A DNA stretch of 64,000 nt, counting the filler, from Basidiobolus ranarum (Eukaryota), in the NCBI GenBank assembly GCA_040143965.1. It is 12 parts of 12 records of this genome, joined end to end, with 100 filler letters (N's around TTAATTAATTAA, not from the genome) between each part and the next. Parts side by side here need not be neighbours in the genome. Positions count along the whole stretch, not along the records: positions 53,631 to 58,866 come from JASJQH010001658.1; 11 more parts are not named here. One strand, 5' to 3'. This document shows, one piece after another, positions 5,283 to 58,966 of the stretch (position 1 is the stretch's first letter; the number at the start of each line of letters is the position of its first letter). The notes beneath the pieces were generated by a model that had not been told where the DNA came from, ran no database searches, and was given only the letters and a program-made list of their open reading frames with translations. The position numbers and the translations under genes are program-made.

Positions 5283-5382
5283 NNNNNNNNNNNNNNNNNN
5301 NNNNNNNNNNNNNNNNNNNNNNNNNNTTAATTAATTAANNNNNNNNNNNNNNNNNNNNNNNNNNNNNNNNNNNNNNNNNNNN
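5283..5382. other. Artificial contig linker N44-TTAATTAATTAA-N44. Identical linkers at 10663-10762, 16041-16140, 21414-21513, 26782-26881, 32145-32244, 37501-37600, 42851-42950, 48194-48293, 53531-53630, 58867-58966
   Basis: Identical 100-nt spacer with stop codons in all six frames. Contig lengths fall monotonically (5280, 5278, 5273, 5268, 5263, 5256, 5250, 5243, 5237, 5236) and genes are cut at the junctions. Confidence 0.98.
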
Positions 5383-10662: not shown

Positions 10663-10762
10663 NNNNNNNNNNNNNNNNNNNNNNNNNNNNNNNNNNNNNN
10701 NNNNNNTTAATTAATTAANNNNNNNNNNNNNNNNNNNNNNNNNNNNNNNNNNNNNNNNNNNN

Positions 10763-38178: not shown

Positions 38179-40076
38179 TCAACGCTTCTTATTTCGGCGC
38201 CGATGCTGGCGCATTTCATTTTTAGAAATGCGTTCACTGGAATTGCCACCAAGTTTGTTGGCATCCTTCGATTTCTTATCAATGTGTTTCTTCCATATAT
38301 CCTGGATTATCATGGGCTTTGGATAATCTTCTCCAACAATACACCCATATTTTTGTTGCTCTTCGGGAGACATCTTCCAAGGGGAATGTATGTACTCAAC
38401 TGGAACATTTACAAGTTCTGGACACCATAGTTTCACATACCTTCCCTCAGGGTCGTAGTCCTTTGCTTGTTTGATCATGTTAAAGTGGCGATTCTCTCGT
38501 GGATCATTGCCCACTCCTGCAACTATAAACAAAGTTTCAGAGTTGAATTCCCATCTTTGATCAACTTGTGACTTACCATACTGCCAATTTCCGTAGTTTG
38601 AGCATGGATCGTAGTCTAGTAAATGTGTCTCAAACCATTCTCCACCGAATCTCCAGTCGATTGATAAATCTTTCGTCAAGAAACTGGCAACATTTTGTCT
38701 ACCACGGTTACTCATGTAGCTAAAAGATTTCAACTCTGTTAGACTTACGTAATAATTACGTTTACATGCGGACGTAATCAAGAATTACCCAGTTTTAATC
38801 AATTCTCTCATGTTTGCATCGACCCAAGGAATTCCTGTTTTTCCAAGGGTCCAAGCAGTCATCATACGTTTGTCAACCTTCCATGACTGATTACCAGGCT
38901 GTTTATGGTTGATTTGACTTAATAAACCATCTCTATAGAATAGTCCATTCCCGTATTTCCGACCAACAAGCCAAAAATAATCCCTCCACAATAATTCAAA
39001 CTGAATCCAGTATGTAGAGGTATTGGCCTCGTACTTCTCCTCGTATTTCCCCACTTCCCTCATGACCTCCCTTGGTGACACACATCCATGTGCTAACCAA
39101 GGCGATATTTTGCTAGAATACTCTGTGCCTATCAGGCCGTTGCGTGTTTCCTTGTATGTAGAAAGATTTCGTGAGTTCCATATCCAATCGTGAAGTCTTT
39201 TAATGCCTTCATCTTCGCCACCGCAGAACGGAAATGCCGATCGTTCATCAATTACAACGTCATTTCCTAGGGCCAACTGTTGAAATAATTCAGCATTATT
39301 TAGTGTCATCATACTCGTTAACTTCTCACTCTCTGGGAAAGGCTTGAGCTCCTTAGGAGAGGGTAAAACTTCTCGGAATAATGGTTCCAAGGATTCCACT
39401 TTTTTTCTGAATTGAGTATATACATCAGGTAGCTCGTTGATAGTGAAAGGAAGATCCTCTGGATGTACCAATGTCGCACCATTAAAAAATTTCACTGGAA
39501 CATCTAAATTTTTTACCAGCGTCTCTTGTACTTTAATCTCTTCGTCAGTCACCTAAATGATAAAAGTAAATATAAGTTTTCGGAATACCAAATATAAATA
39601 TTTATAGAAAGATCACCTCTTCTTGCAGATAGACTCCTTCAATGTTGTATTCAGTTAATATCTCTTTGGTTAGTCTAGGAAGAAACTCTTCGGGAGGTTC
39701 GTACGCTACAAGTAGTTCACTTCCCAGTTTTTTCAGGTTATTTTTCAAGTTCAGCACCGATTCCATCAGAAACCTCAAATAATTCGTAAAGAAAGTTGAG
39801 ATTATTTTGACTATTATAAATCAAAAGACAACCCACTTACTTGGTTCGCAGTTTACTACATTTTGGTAAACCAAACACTCCACTCTTGGGAGCTGTGTAA
39901 GCTTTATCTTTAACATTAGTCAGGTCCACTTGTCTGGGATCGAAACAGTAGATTGGAAGTAAATGAGAGACTTTAGGGTGCTTGTTTCCATGAAATAACG
40001 TAGGGTTGTCTCTCAACCGTAAGTCATTACGAAATAAACAAAGAATAATGGAGCGGGTGGTAGAGTTTGAAGTCAT
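38179..40076 (-). CDS. Cryptochrome DASH (photolyase/cryptochrome family), 5 exons
   Basis: [85 protein letters not shown]. Alternative ATG at 40106. Confidence 0.95.
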
Positions 40077-53400: not shown

Positions 53401-54042
53401 GTGAGATGGTTGATAAAAGTGTTCAGGGGATATGGAAGTGTTTTGGACAAGATTAGGATTTGTGAATTAGACACTTAAGTTTTATTGAATTGAATATGTC
53501 CTATTTATAGTTTACTATGAAATAGGACTANNNNNNNNNNNNNNNNNNNNNNNNNNNNNNNNNNNNNNNNNNNNTTAATTAATTAANNNNNNNNNNNNNN
53601 NNNNNNNNNNNNNNNNNNNNNNNNNNNNNNACATTGGTCATCAGGTTAAGTATGGATATGATCCAGTATTGTCACAATATCTTAAAAGATTGATGTCTTG
53701 ATTGTCACTTTGTTTAGATTAGTATTTAAGCTAAATAAAGTACACACCATCTGGTGCTTTTCATCCCCCTAAGGTTTTGATGGCATTTCCAGATTCAGGA
53801 GTTTTGCGTAGTAAGGTGATAGCTCTATTCGTTGTTTACTGTGGAACTTGATGATTGAATATTACACTCTCTGGTCCTTTTCAATGGCCGCAATTCGGCA
53901 ACTATTCATACGCATATAAGCACTTCAGAAAGTACTACACTATTGTCGTCTTGATATTGATGGAAATTGGCTCGATTGAATAATTTGAAGAAGCATTTAT
54001 TTGTTGGATATATGCAGCTGATGTATTCACTACATTGAGTGA

Positions 54043-57000
54043 TTAAATATTTTGGGAGACATCTAGGTTATTCACCGGTTTTGTGATTGTACCGGCCTCG
54101 TCTATAGACCAGGAGCATGAACTCTGTCTCAACGTATACATACTGTAGTGGTATTGATTGGGGGGAAAGGTTACTCTCAAATCATCGAGATTGTTCCCGG
54201 GCTGATTATCCCAGTTAGTAAGGTAAACTTCGAAGTCCGTTTGCATCCCAGGACTTGCTTGTCTTGCAGCATTACGCCCTGTAATAATATACTCCAGGGC
54301 TCGTTTATTTGGATGCATGTATTGCCGATTACCTCCAGATATCATATAAATATCACCAACAAGATTTCTGAAATCCGCTTCACTTGAGGTCCGGGCTGAT
54401 GCGTGATGAGGAACCTTCAAAAAATCGTAGCGGCGCGCGTTAGCAGTTAAACCTGACCTCCACACGCTCTCCATAGCGGCACTAGTTGCATCCCCTAGTT
54501 CAAAATCAATATTGTGTAAACAATTGGATTCATAATGAGTAGAATGGCAGAATAATCACCAGTAAATAGCAAGGTTTTTCTAGCAAAATCAAACTGAGTC
54601 ATGATGGATATCATGTTTCTGGCTTCTGAAGCTTCAGGTTCCCCTAATGCACCCCCACCACACATATTTACGGAGTTGAGACTTCTTCTAATGACATCCA
54701 TCGAAGGCCCTATCACATTCATTGAAAGCCCGGTGACTTGATTATAATAGCCCAGCACACCCCTGTTCGAAACCACTTCATAATTACTTCGAGTGTACCA
54801 TAAAAAGTCTACCAAAGCGGCATCAATACCACGAATGGGCTGAGTTCCAGCCTTCCAATCAGCCAGTGATTCAGCGTACAGTGCATCCAGAGCATGCTCG
54901 CATTCAGCACTCATCGGTGCATTGCCAACACTACCGCGTAGTAAATTATCAAACGGGTGATCGCTAAGGAGAATTTACACAGATTTTAGATAGGTAATGC
55001 AAGTATACCACAGTAGCAAACTTACATCATTATATGAGCATGGGGGCCGATGTAATGAGTGCCTGCTGTTGCATCAGAACGTAATAGAGAGGTGATTCCC
55101 CCCAAGTGATCTACACATTTATGACAGAGTTAGATTTATGATGAGTGAAATAGTGTAAAGGTTGCGTTTATGCCGGAGTCATTGTAACTAAAACTGTGTC
55201 GATCCGTTTGGTAGTAAAACCCTAAGGGTCACCACAGTTCGGTTACCTTACTCAGATAGCGGTCTTACCTAAATCGAGATGAGTAACAACAACATAGTTG
55301 ACTTTATAGCCTTGATCTTGGTTATTGATTTTAATATTATCGGCTTGGTCGAGAAATTCCTTCAACTCGTTAATTCTTCTGCCACCATCTATCAACACGC
55401 GATCAATGTCTGTTGATGCACAACGATGTGGGTTCCAGGCAGAAGTGTCACAAATAAACTTGTAGAAAGTCAATACGAAACTGAAGGTATCAGAAGTAGG
55501 TTACAACAGTTAGTCTCTTAATGCTTGTGCCTGTGTTATAATTGAGTACATACCTGTCTCCAGGACCGGCTTGTACCATTGAAATTTGAGACCGGCGCAT
55601 TTCATAAAAGTTTCCTGCTGCAGCTTTGGAGCTGGCTGTCAGGATATTCGCTTGCAGGGAACACACTGTACTGTGAATAATGGGTAATGGGTCCTTGGTC
55701 ATACCAGCTGGTGGATTTACTGCCCCAATAGGCTGGGAGAGCGGTAAGTCTTTTTGAGTTAGACTAGCTATTGCCCATACCGAAGCAAGCAGGCCCAATA
55801 GTTTCCCAATTTCAGGCACAATGGATTTCAAAATCTCTGCCACCGGGGTTACCACTACCGTGCTTATATCACTCACAAACATTTTGAAAAGCAACCATTT
55901 AAGGGCCTTACTAATTACAATTGAGTGATGCGTGGGATCTGACGGGCTGGATACGAGCTGCGTGCTGGCATACATGGAGCGAATTGATTCAGAAAATGGT
56001 TGATTTGGACAGGTGGGAGTTTTGGAAAACTGTAGAACCGCATTTCTAAGCTCATCCAAATCGGAACCTGGAATGAACAGGTCTGTATTTACGAAATAGA
56101 ATGAAGTGGGTGTTAATGAAATAGAAGAAAGCGGATTTAAGTTCGGTTAAAGTTTCGCAAAGCAACATACTTTGTTTCTTCTGAAAATAGACATGGCCTG
56201 GACTTGAATGAGGCCCGTCGGTAGTGGCTCTTAAGAAAGAACACACCAGTGGCTGCTCTTTGTTCTTTTCATCGAGCTGCAGGTTGAATCCGACGCAATC
56301 AGAGGTTGCTGAGCACCAATCTGCGCAGAGGCCTCTTTTACCTGTGTTCATAGTGTATTCAACCTGGCCATTGAAGTATTGACTTTTTAGGATGTCATAT
56401 TCGAATAATCTACAACTACATCCACCGGTGTTCTCAATCATGCATAATGACTTGCATTTCATAGGTGAAAACCAACATTTGGCCATCAAAAAGCCACAGT
56501 CACATGGTTGACTGGCGGGTGCTTTAAGCGAATCACACGCATGAGGATTCACCAGTTTACCTCCTCTACTGCAAACCTGAGATTGCCTCGATCCAGGAGC
56601 ACCACAAGCATCCGACCAATAATACTCGGCACAACAGTTATTCTGAGATGCTGAACCCAAAGAGCCGGCAATGTCCAAATAGTAATTTGATGGGAGGCTG
56701 TTCCAAGCGGTATCGAAAACTGCTCCAAGAGCTGTTAGAGTAAGGCCGATCAACCCTATGAGGAATAATGCCAGAAGTGGAATAAATCGCGCTTGAATGA
56801 TACTAAGATGGGAACCGCCTTGAGCATTTACACTCTTAGTCATAGCTTCCTGGCCATGGTCAAATTGTTCGAAGCATGCACATATATTCTCACATGGGTT
56901 GTTAATAACGCACGAAGCAACTTGCCTGTCAGAGAGACCTAGGTTCAGGGAAAGTAAATGCATCTGGAAGCGCAACTTGCATGTTGAGTTGCTACCCATG

Positions 57001-57428
57001 CACTTCCCAGATTTCTCCACAAAGGCTTCATATTCTGGATTTTGAAGTTGGACAAGCTTACCGTTCTTCTTTTGCTTCTCAACACTCATCCAAAGTTCCT
57101 CAAAGCTCAAGAACCCATCACCGTTACTATCTATCGCTTTGATCATTCGGTAGAATTGCTTGAGAGAATCCGAGCGGGATTCAACTGCCGAACTCTGAGT
57201 AGAATAAAGCGAAGTTCCGCACTTGGAAAGATCATTGCTAATCCTGGATGAGCAAACCAAATCGTTATAACTCAGTAGTCCGTCGTGATCATGATCTAAA
57301 GCCTCAAAGACGGCATGCCAGGAATTATGTAGTCGTGCCGGAGTCTCAGTTGCAGAAGTCGGTATAGCATTGGTGACCCAATTCACAGTAATGAGTAACC
57401 ACAAAGATCCCAGCTGAAAGTACTTCAT
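54043..57428 (-). CDS. Secreted multidomain protein (~979 aa): signal peptide, 2 EF-hands, hydrophobic helix, Cys-rich/PAN-like region, C-terminal ComEC/Rec2-type metallo-beta-lactamase domain
   Basis: Exons 57428-56171, 56082-55554, 55480-55269, 55110-55026, 54963-54560, 54494-54043, all GT-AG, total 2940 nt in frame. Splicing assembles the MBL motifs AGPGDSFVL, VLIDGG, THLDLDHLGG, LLFTGDA, LKVPHHAS, ISGG..YMHP. EF loops DHDHDGLLSYNDL and DSNGDGFLSFEEL. Confidence 0.85.
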
Positions 57429-58018
57429 TCGATATGGGATTTGTAGCTGAATGAGTTTCACTTGAAAGGGACAGAATGTCTACTCTAAATAGTCAGCAAC
57501 CGGTGAGAAGATTCCAACCGTATGAAGAAACAACTTTCTCAGAGTCGTATCATTGGTGAGTAACGATTCTTTGAGTACTAATACCTCGAGTACACGTGCT
57601 TTGAGAACAAGTACTTTGAGCATCGTACTTGGAGTAGAAAAACTTTGGTGCAGCCACAATTTTCTATTTTGAAGTAGACCAGGCGCCTGATAGATGCACA
57701 AATTAATGCTGTCCATCCATGAAGCACGATTCCTAGGATAGGCTCCAACCCTTCTCTAATGGCAAATGTTCACAAAGTAAATACTTGTTGAAAGCACATA
57801 GGTTGAAAATCTCGTCATCGTGAATTCTCCCTTCAAGAGTCAGAATTTGGACGAGTTATTGTATACTTGAGTAACGTAATCTAACAAGGCACCGGTACCT
57901 CTTGTACCTGGGATTTTTTCTTACACGTGTTTTGTTTGCAATTGTTGTGGTTACTCGAGTTTTCTTGAATGCTATATAACTAGCTTTTTGAAGTCCTTAC
58001 AGTTCAACTATTTGTACT

Positions 58019-58866
58019 ATGCTCTGGCCAGTAGTGTTGACTTTTTTGGCTGCTAGCTTTGTCGCAGTTGGTAAGGTTTTTTAATATCCATCTTCCATTA
58101 TAGCAGTGATGTAACGCTTTTAACTTGTATACAGAGGCTCAAGATGCAACTTGCAGTTCGACAAAGCCGTGCGCAGTTGGCTGTTGCTCGAAATTTGGTA
58201 GTTGCGGTTTCGGGCCGGAATTTTGTGGAGAAAACTGTATTGGGACCTGTGACGCCAAAGCCAGTAAGAAGTTTTGGGATATTTCATTAGGGATTGGGCT
58301 TACGATCTTCATCAATTTAGTGTGTGGACAATATGGGGACAACCGTACATGTGAAAGTGGTTGCTGCAGTGCGATTGGATTTTGCGGGTATGAAACAGCC
58401 ATGTGCACCGAAATAGGAGTAGCATCCAAGTATCACTTACTAACTCCAAATTAAGGTTTGGTCCGGATTTCTGTGGAACTGGATGCCAAAGCAATTGTAA
58501 TGCTGTACCGCCCCGAACTGGTGAGTTAAGGCATGACTCTCTAGTTGCTTGTTCGTACTCAACTTTCTCATCGCTATAGAATGTGGTGCTAATGGAAATG
58601 TAACTGAATGTCCTCTTGGTGTTTGCTGCAGTCAATGGGGATTTTGTGGTGAGTATGTGGGTCTTATTACGAATCGCGGATGAGTACTAATGGGTCACTT
58701 CTCAGGGATTGGACCAGATTTTTGTAATGACAAATGCCAGAGTAACTGCGTGTTGAAGCCACCTCAGCCATCTTGCGATCCCAGTAAGTAGAACCGTACA
58801 AAGTTGAATTTGAGGATTAACTCCCCCAAGGGTTTGGCTCCGGCTCGAGAGCTCGAGGGGGCTCTG
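58019..58866 (+). CDS. Secreted chitin-binding protein with three hevein/CBM18 modules, probably the N-terminus of a subgroup C (killer-toxin-like) GH18 chitinase; 3' truncated
   Basis: Signal peptide MLWPVVLTFLAASFVAVEA. Spliced exons give CSSTKPCAVGCCSKFGSCGFGPEFCGENCIGTCDAKAMCG, CCSAIGFCGFGPDFCGTGCQSNC and CPLGVCCSQWGFCGIGPDFCNDKCQSNC. The catalytic domain is not visible. Confidence 0.8.
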
Positions 58867-58966
58867 NNNNNNNNNNNNNNNNNNNNNNNNNNNNNNNNNN
58901 NNNNNNNNNNTTAATTAATTAANNNNNNNNNNNNNNNNNNNNNNNNNNNNNNNNNNNNNNNNNNNN

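Follow-up and report, generated by a model that had tools for sequence, protein, structure and literature searches.

An EF-hand and PAN module joined to a ComEC-like metallo-beta-lactamase domain in a six-exon gene of Basidiobolus ranarum

Studies of the ComEC nuclease domain reportedly assign it a nuclease function. In the main text of Tuck et al. 2025 (PMC12799240), HamM, Avs1a and CanC are described as DNA-specific pro-nucleases with the active site gated by two insertions (relative to ComEC) that are cut by a partner protease, be it trypsin-like, a caspase or of another family; it was not until 2025 that this metallo-beta-lactamase (MBL) clade was characterised, as a DNase of bacterial immunity activated by a protease, and the same main text contains no word starting with 'fung' and reports no eukaryotic homologs. 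Here we describe a gene of the fungus Basidiobolus ranarum in a 64,000-nucleotide window (the whole stretch of DNA analysed, from assembly GCA_040143965.1) that joins a front module of EF-hands, a hydrophobic helix, a Cys-rich region and a PAN/apple domain to a C-terminal MBL domain. The explanation that we prefer, and hold to be somewhat better than an even chance, is a genuine gene whose product would be a metal-dependent DNase or phosphodiesterase acting outside the cytoplasm, carried on a scaffold with Ca2+-binding and PAN parts, and whose MBL is probably of bacterial origin.

A domain of the wider HamM/Avs1a/CanC-type clade is thereby found in an intron-bearing fungal gene, behind a Ca2+-binding, disulfide-rich and probably extracytoplasmic module. 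If active, it would represent a bacterial competence/defence nuclease fold recruited to the fungal secretory pathway, and could bear on the handling of bacterial DNA, biofilms and cell walls by a gut-dwelling fungus. Basidiobolus is known for bacterial gene acquisitions (main text of Tabima et al. 2020, PMC7466969). No publication was found that combines 'EF-hand', 'PAN domain', 'metallo-beta-lactamase' and 'fung', a literature search on ComEC in fungi had no relevant publication among those listed, and 'lactamase' is absent from the main text of two papers on gene transfer in Basidiobolus or early fungi. As far as these searches reach, the architecture is undescribed in print, and it recurs in a small family.

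One gene from six exons

The gene takes up most of the window piece 53631-58866 (5236 bp, JASJQH010001658.1) and is the only gene on it. Its coding sequence is distributed over five stop-to-stop open reading frames (ORFs) of the minus strand (56052-57479, 55490-56146, 55252-55500, 54495-54974 and 54043-54555), and its shortest exon is contained in a 35-amino-acid (aa) ORF (55022-55129) of the same stop-to-stop list. The six joined exons comprise 2940 nucleotides (nt), divisible by three and with a single terminal stop, and encode 979 aa. All five introns begin with GT and end with AG, and none has a length divisible by three, so that each would disrupt the frame if retained. With the last exon as query, the 979-aa 'hypothetical protein K7432_014481 [Basidiobolus ranarum]' (P0001 in the following) was retrieved; it originates from a contig of 5236 bp, equal in length to the window piece, and is identical to the spliced product at every residue. 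The Basidiobolus ranarum six-exon gene (Table 1) is genuine, correctly modelled and already deposited as a hypothetical protein.

A sequence-only reading of this stretch had proposed that five ORF entries and an 85-nt exon form one spliced gene, which the uninterrupted frame and the identity to K7432_014481 confirm. It had further claimed that metal-binding motifs are assembled across splice junctions; this holds for GD/S (codon 596 split), THLDL/DH (codon 667 split) and FTG/DA (codon 830 split; slashes mark junctions), and HIM/I/DH can be added. Intron-less bacterial homologs align through the four junctions inside the MBL domain without gaps, and the sequence flanking the junction of intron 1 is conserved on either side in the paralog P0002 and in P0003.

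The metallo-beta-lactamase domain and its bacterial relatives

The spliced protein exceeds the Pfam threshold of Lactamase_B (PF00753; 29.3 bits versus 22.7, residues 623-679), whereas the single MBL exons give no Pfam match, so that the domain is recognisable only after splicing. A full-length AlphaFold model built on a 52-row alignment (mean predicted local distance difference test, pLDDT, 72.9; predicted template modelling score, pTM, 0.51) is confident for residues 30-190, 265-420 and 578-979 and poor for 191-261 and 420-548. Block means of pLDDT within the MBL domain (578-979) lie mostly between 75 and 95, with a dip to 58-66 at 721-740. Among 998 chains ranked by Foldseek, 681 align at Z >=8 across residues 579-976. 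Of the solved structures, the ComEC nuclease domain 9ic4 matches best (Foldseek E 8.5e-10; Z 23.7, root-mean-square deviation (rmsd) 2.7 A, 252 of 266 residues, 21% identity), followed by the phosphorylcholine esterase Pce (2bib, 1wra) at Z 21.0-21.4, and all remaining MBLs stay at Z <=15.3. A sequence search of the PDB (E up to 1, 12 matches) yields just two MBL matches, both of them ComEC chains (9ic4 and 30bt, E 0.0013 and 0.012). The ComEC-like fold with its quoted motifs, as proposed from the sequence, is thereby corroborated.

Profile searches point to another family. Against the PADLOC defence models, P0001 matches RTasMBL (PDLC03805) at 1.8e-24, LmuA (PDLC03854) at 7e-22 and Avs1a (PDLC02158) at 6.7e-13, and the NCBIfam Avs1a model (NF041809) is matched at E 4.9e-17, with 61.7 bits lying below its equivalog cutoff of 420. 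The ComEC model TIGR00361 is matched with 28.3 bits, below its cutoff of 190.05. The former assignment to ComEC/Rec2 therefore stands with regard to the nearest solved fold but not to the nearest family, as the defence MBL profiles score better. In sequence, ComEC proper is more distant from the MBL domain than are the defence pro-nuclease clade of bacteria and the bacterial MBLs fused to LamG.

The 39 bacterial rows of alignment A2 share 15 invariant positions, and P0001 has the same residue at each of them (D627, G629, H663, D667, H668, G671, N701, P781, N811, S814, D831, H859, H860, S862 and P891). P0001 also agrees at four positions kept in 38 of these 39 rows (G594, D595, D665 and K856).

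When 1.84 billion representatives were searched exhaustively with phmmer, 620 matches were obtained at E <=0.001 and just six at <=1e-10, so that the MBL domain is well diverged from everything sampled. Among the 34 nearest proteins scanned with PADLOC, the top model is LmuA in 29, Avs1a in three and RTasMBL in one, with one protein lacking a match; stand-alone relatives of 350-437 aa match the defence MBL models end to end. A pattern scan of prokaryote genomes produced 588 candidate stretches, of which at least 225 encode relatives, and the 80 loci kept are all bacterial, from many phyla, with 22-40% identity. Metagenome pattern scans with alignments A5 and A6 yielded 293 and 80 stretches, none of them encoding a relative.

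A quick IQ-TREE analysis covered 63 of 135 near-complete domains, i.e. all 19 from proteins longer than 470 aa and the first 44 shorter ones by rank. With several long branches, and with the Shimodaira-Hasegawa-like approximate likelihood ratio test (SH-aLRT) as its only support measure, the tree places P0001 in a 100%-supported clade of 51 rows, with ComEC outside. This clade is a polytomy of five lineages: P0001 with P0002; P0008, P0012, P0013 and P0025; five LamG-fused proteins; P0007; and a clade of 39 stand-alone rows (95%). The alignment of P0001 with the LamG-fused P0104, from a metagenome-assembled genome (MAG) of Polyangiales, starts at residue 620 and continues to the C-terminal end of both proteins (24% identity; E 8e-15 in the pairwise comparison).

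The MBL-coding part contains four introns and has a GC content of 0.443 (0.403 at third codon positions, GC3), compared with 0.448/0.442 for the front module and 0.42-0.46/0.39-0.45 for other genes of the window. Transfer candidates of Basidiobolus have a median of 0 introns (main text of Tabima et al. 2020, PMC7466969), and with four introns in the MBL part any transfer would be old. Acquisition from bacteria is the likelier direction, because the relatives are spread over diverse bacteria, with only a small group of eukaryote type. The MBL domain is thus probably bacterial in origin, acquired long ago, and would then have gained four introns and a host-like composition. The earlier suggestion of a bacterial-type domain with acquired introns agrees with the overwhelmingly bacterial relatives and with the four introns inside the domain; the transfer itself is no more than probable, given the polytomy and the host-like GC and GC3.

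Gene context was inspected in eight of the 80 bacterial loci, those with the longest matches; three of the eight lack a clear ORF assignment. In four, representing four bacterial phyla, a subtilase gene (Peptidase_S8) lies directly upstream of a stand-alone LmuA/Avs1a-type MBL gene on the same strand (L001:2549-5907, L012:4070-7263, L016:4588-7239 and L025:4030-7257), an apparent subtilase counterpart of the pairs published for trypsin or caspase and nuclease. In a further locus, from a Chloroflexia MAG (L021:5920-8167), a caspase-family gene (Peptidase_C14) follows the MBL gene, an arrangement that resembles the published caspase-nuclease (canu) loci. P0062 (1152 aa) combines a subtilase, an MBL of the clade considered here and a lamin-tail domain in one protein, a fused protease-nuclease pair.

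The front module, its family and its place in the cell

The EF-hand pair exceeds both Pfam thresholds (EF-hand_7, PF13499, 36.7 bits versus 30; EF-hand_1, PF00036, 35.3 versus 25.4), in agreement with the prediction from the sequence. Its loops D45-D56 and D100-E111 (DHDHDGLLSYND and DSNGDGFLSFEE) carry canonical residues at positions 1, 3, 5, 6, 8 and 12. In an AlphaFold model of exon 1 alone (pLDDT 66.3), residues 28-124 match solved EF-hand pairs at Z ~9 (VIA-align), and eight Cys of the EF region are conserved in both paralogs. The helix behind the EF-hands is the most hydrophobic 19-residue window of the protein, and AlphaFold models place a helix of low pLDDT at 212-241.

For the region predicted as Cys-rich and PAN-like, the PAN/apple fold is verified at residues 339-419. 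VIA-align matches it to plasminogen (4a5t) and the N domain of HGF (3hms) at Z 11.2 (rmsd 1.7-1.9 A, 75-76 residues), and additionally to apple domains of kallikrein, factor XI and MIC4. Its cysteines C368, C372, C378 and C396 are invariant, as is the C-x3-C-x5-C pattern in the family. P0001 does not reach a Pfam threshold for PAN/apple (PF14295, PF00024; PAN_4 at E 0.022, 15.3 bits versus 27), whereas its relative P0045 exceeds that of PAN_4 in the aligned region (30.1 versus 27 bits). Foldseek found no match to the exon-1 model at E <=0.001, and a search of the ESM Atlas with residues 200-425 gave just sub-threshold PAN-like leads (score 0.78). The preceding Cys-rich region (262-338) is modelled at pLDDT ~80-93, except for ~57 in the block 311-320 (full-length model), and VIA-align of the exon-1 model found no solved structure covering it. 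Invariant Cys here include 265, 275, 286, 309, 325, 329, 337 and 339. The following linker has pLDDT <50 at 454-478 and 486-548.

The same order of parts occurs in the paralog P0002 (K7432_012029, 981 aa, 67% identity). The architecture is also found in P0003 (a truncated model), P0008, P0012, P0013 and P0025, with P0004 as a fragment, altogether in at least seven 50%-identity clusters. Put forward as unusual in the sequence-only reading, the architecture is not unique in view of this recurrence, and the gene is already annotated with the same model. P0017 and P0079 combine four upstream LysM domains, the EF-hand pair, the Arg and hydrophobic helix and the Cys-rich/PAN part with a C-terminal papain-family protease (Peptidase_C1); P0001 and P0017 share 28% identity over 208 columns (E 5e-17). 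P0005, P0034 and P0045 join the front module to a C-terminal part without recognised identity, and that of P0034 has no match by sequence in the PDB and none in the Atlas. By these comparisons of sequence the front module is a reusable eukaryotic carrier for different hydrolases. A profile search with alignment A1, swamped because EF-hand words filled its set of 8000 candidates, has the two Basidiobolus paralogs and two EF-hand proteins among the matches listed. In P0002, the deposited residues ~829-835 read LLFTVNEGDA, versus L(L/F)TGDA in the P0001 gene and all bacterial relatives; the five extra residues lie exactly at the position of intron 5, and the annotated splice site is probably misplaced.

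A hydrophobic window occurs at the same position in 12 of 12 family members (Kyte-Doolittle 2.05-3.41), a leader-like N-terminus in 11 of 12, and R214 and 13 cysteines are invariant across the 12 sequences. The helix is preceded by basic and followed by acidic residues in most members, and the length of the hydrophobic stretch varies from ~19 to ~60 residues. Cys 444, 560, 606, 616, 716 and 796, in or adjoining the MBL domain, are present in 4-8 of 8 eukaryote-type proteins versus 0-1 of 39 bacterial rows. Among them, the pair 606/616 (window ~55422-55452) flanks an inserted loop, and 716/796 (window ~54901 and ~54661) lie in two loop regions equivalent to the gates of the bacterial pro-nucleases. 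Both pairs may act as disulfide staples.

We infer from these sequence features that the protein enters the secretory pathway. It is probably extracytoplasmic, because the leader is found in 11 of 12 members, the Cys of the EF region are conserved, the PAN Cys pattern is invariant, additional Cys positions mark the eukaryote-type MBLs and the siblings carry LysM and papain domains. The helix could possibly serve as a hairpin or re-entrant anchor, mark a processing site after the invariant Arg, or be a non-membrane helix. In the 11-sequence alignment A1 the pair preceding it is KR in five, RR in three and AR in three (including P0001 and P0002), and kexin-type dibasic processing at the conserved Arg is only a possibility. 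The term 'secreted carrier' used in the sequence-only reading is too simple, as the 24-residue hydrophobic helix, conserved in position throughout the family, had been overlooked, and its term 'calcium-sensing' is open to doubt should the EF-hands be extracytoplasmic. What emerges is an undescribed eukaryotic scaffold of EF-hand, hydrophobic helix, Cys-rich region and PAN whose membrane topology would depart from the usual rules.

Table 1. Positions in the window of the gene, its exons and introns, and the parts of its product
Feature	Position	Strand	Basis or detail
Whole gene, six exons and five introns, 979-aa product (P0001)	54043..57428	-	ORF list, splicing, identity to deposited protein
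Exon 1 (aa 1-419 + 1 nt): leader-like N-terminus, EF-hand pair, hydrophobic helix, Cys-rich, PAN/apple	56171..57428	-	
Intron 1, 88 nt	56083..56170	-	GTATGT..CAG; junction of front module and rest
Exon 2	55554..56082	-	
Intron 2, 73 nt	55481..55553	-	interrupts GD/S motif
Exon 3	55269..55480	-	
Intron 3, 158 nt	55111..55268	-	interrupts HLDL/DH
Exon 4, 85 nt, aa 667-694	55026..55110	-	
Intron 4, 62 nt	54964..55025	-	
Exon 5	54560..54963	-	
Intron 5, 65 nt	54495..54559	-	donor GTGATT; interrupts FTG/DA
Exon 6	54043..54494	-	
Signal-peptide-like N-terminus, aa 1-21, inferred from sequence	57366..57428	-	Kyte-Doolittle 1.7 (12 residues)
EF-hand pair, aa 38-112	57093..57317	-	Pfam above threshold; fold match
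Strongly hydrophobic helix, aa 215-238, Arg214 just before	56715..56786	-	Kyte-Doolittle 2.45 (19-residue window)
Cys-rich region, aa 262-338, 12 Cys	56415..56645	-	invariant Cys; no solved fold match
PAN/apple domain, aa 339-419	56172..56414	-	structural match Z 11.2
Linker, aa 420-577, helical, low confidence, moderately hydrophobic stretch 507-525	55610..56082	-	Kyte-Doolittle 1.63
MBL-fold domain, aa 578-979, over exons 2-6, broken by introns 2-5	54046..55609	-	Pfam, PADLOC, structure

The window consists of twelve contigs of ~5.3 kb, chained by N44-TTAATTAATTAA-N44 linkers (spacers 5283-5382, 10663-10762 ... 58867-58966), so that features on different pieces are not genomic neighbours. 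Its remaining pieces carry ordinary eukaryotic genes (bromodomain, SPRY, C2H2 zinc finger, kinase, ZIP transporter, NUDE, photolyase and P-type ATPase). The photolyase/cryptochrome gene at 38179-39552 (minus strand) had drawn attention by its appearance as two ORFs with an in-frame stop (38785) between them and was set aside, as this stop lies in an ordinary intron of ~66 nt (GTAATT...TTTTAG).

Readings of function and comparison with known systems

According to the preferred explanation, the product would enter the secretory pathway through its putative signal peptide. The front module would comprise a Ca2+-binding domain of two EF-hands with conserved Cys, the hydrophobic helix, and the Cys-rich and PAN/apple parts, and a flexible linker would join it to the C-terminal MBL hydrolase of the ComEC/Pce structural subclass. 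Its site of action would be extracytoplasmic, either on the cell surface or inside a secretory compartment, where the PAN and Cys-rich parts may bind the target and the EF-hands may have a structural or Ca2+-dependent stabilising role. Because all clade-invariant metal- and active-site residues are kept, the MBL most likely functions as a metal-dependent phosphodiesterase. By analogy with the nuclease domain of ComEC and with the HamM/Avs1a/CanC pro-nucleases, its nearest characterised relatives, DNase activity is the most probable.

Several points weigh against this explanation. The tree identifies neither a donor nor a sister group, and the host-like composition of the MBL part leaves no compositional trace of transfer. 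The scores against every curated family are far under the cutoff (Avs1a 61.7 versus 420, ComEC 28.3 versus 190). The bacterial W-H-N-S motif reads F-D-N-L in P0001, with Asp replacing a His that 26 of 39 bacterial rows contain. The helix at 215-238, if a stop-transfer anchor following a cleaved signal peptide, would put PAN and MBL in the cytoplasm. Finally, the substrate could equally be a phosphodiester other than nucleic acid, as with Pce.

This last point leads to an alternative that is unlikely, yet the strongest of those considered, i.e. a Pce-like esterase that strips phosphorylcholine, or a different head group in phosphodiester linkage, from teichoic acids, glycans or lipids of bacteria at the surface of the fungus. 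Pce is the second-best structural match behind ComEC and occupies Foldseek ranks 2-4, the PAN and Cys-rich parts (with LysM in the siblings) suggest binding of glycans or cell walls, and the habitat of Basidiobolus is described as lying among gut bacteria. By sequence, however, no Pce chain is among the 12 PDB matches obtained at E up to 1, only the two ComEC MBL chains; all significant profile matches are families of nuclease type, and Pfam detects no choline-binding repeats.

Rather less probable is a eukaryotic protease-activated pro-nuclease, an inactive MBL switched on by a protease, possibly the papain-bearing sibling, in a fungal conflict or cell-death system. The defence MBL models are the best profile matches, and the nuclease of that clade is a zymogen opened by its partner protease (main text of PMC12799240). 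Bacterial neighbours include subtilases in four and a caspase-family protein in one of the eight inspected loci, the front module is joined to Peptidase_C1 in P0017 and P0079, and P0001 has ~68 residues more than ComEC between HxDxDH and NxxS. The spacing of these two motifs is 80 residues in ComEC, 148 in P0001, 135-183 in LamG-MBL proteins, 163-184 in protease-linked loci, 192-199 in the Avs1a type and 227-277 in P0008, P0012, P0013 and P0025. Against a zymogen, most residues of both Avs1a-type gate inserts are without counterpart in the aligned P0001, its region 700-810 is modelled as ordered (pLDDT 58-88) and not as disordered loops, and P0001 falls outside the 39-row stand-alone clade (95% SH-aLRT). 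With the short spacing, the missing insert residues and the ordered region, gating of the active site would be unlikely in P0001.

Of the same low probability is a type I transmembrane receptor, with the EF-hands (and LysM in the siblings) facing outward, the helix spanning the membrane, and PAN and MBL as cytoplasmic effectors. It would be the simplest interpretation of a signal peptide with a single, strongly hydrophobic helix behind it, a helix present in all family members. The invariant disulfide Cys of the PAN domain and the eukaryote-specific Cys of the MBL suggest an oxidising compartment instead, the flanks in most members are the reverse of those expected for stop-transfer in this orientation, and the hydrophobic stretch is variable in length among members (~19 to ~60 residues).

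A eukaryotic re-use of the nuclease-protease immune pair, with both enzymes on a membrane-associated EF-hand/PAN scaffold (with or without LysM) in Basidiobolus-type fungi, is a speculative extension to which we give slightly less weight still. Protease and nuclease would be brought together when Ca2+ or fragments of cell wall are sensed, either at the surface or within a compartment; the conserved Arg and the hydrophobic helix would be the processing site and the membrane anchor, and DNA degradation would be directed at bacteria, viruses or competing fungi, or serve as a cell-death switch.

Marginally weaker again is the proposal of an inactive scaffold, whose MBL has lost catalysis and only binds. 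The W-H-N-S motif is degenerate across the eukaryotic branch: its Asn, present in 39 of 39 bacteria, occurs in one of eight eukaryote-type proteins (P0001), and His is replaced by Asp in five of eight. All other invariant residues, including H663, D665, D667, H668, N811, D831, H859 and H860, are kept in P0001 and in six complete eukaryote-type proteins, which speaks against a loss of catalysis.

An annotation artefact, in which two adjacent genes or a chimeric assembly were falsely fused across intron 1, may be suspected from the piece size of only 5236 bp and from the exon-1 frame, which runs to a stop at ~56052 if intron 1 is read through, but is highly improbable in view of the identical part order in P0002 and five further independently predicted clusters, the conserved flanks of the intron 1 junction and the absence of any plausible start codon or promoter region from which a second gene could be expressed (behind the junction, Met is first encountered at residue 456).

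The preferred explanation of an extracytoplasmic DNase or phosphodiesterase can be set against the described systems as follows. With ComEC/Rec2 (9ic4, Moorella glycerini), P0001 shares the motifs GD, HxDxDH, N..S, TGD, KVPHHxS (KVxHHxS) and HP. Pfam detects neither the Competence channel (PF03772) nor DUF4131/OB in P0001, whereas the true ComEC matches P0043 and P0103 carry both. P0001 differs further in the longer HxDxDH-NxxS interval already given, and is instead eukaryotic, intron-bearing and fused to EF-hand and PAN, with ComEC outside the 51-row clade.

The defence MBL pro-nucleases (HamM, Avs1a, Lamassu- and DRT-associated MBL, CanC) provide the best profile matches and belong to the same 51-row clade. 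P0001 lies outside their stand-alone subclade of 39 rows and scores far below the family cutoffs; they are cytoplasmic and stand alone, whereas P0001 has a front module of secretory type. Pce/CbpE of Streptococcus pneumoniae, a teichoic-acid phosphorylcholine esterase, is comparable as an extracellular modular MBL enzyme with a similar fold, and differs in sequence.

LamG-LamG-MBL proteins (P0010, P0104 'LamG-like jellyroll fold domain-containing protein [Polyangiales bacterium]', P0108, P0109 and P0135) are long fusions with a C-terminal MBL like P0001. Their alignment with P0001 reaches the last residue of both, with a tail of ...G.IT.P...V...I, and their range of motif spacing includes that of P0001. 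In contrast, identity is just 24% and the N-terminal parts differ (Laminin_G_3). The siblings P0017 and P0079 have the EF-hand, the invariant Arg, the helix and the 13 invariant Cys in common with P0001, and differ in the C-terminal enzyme.

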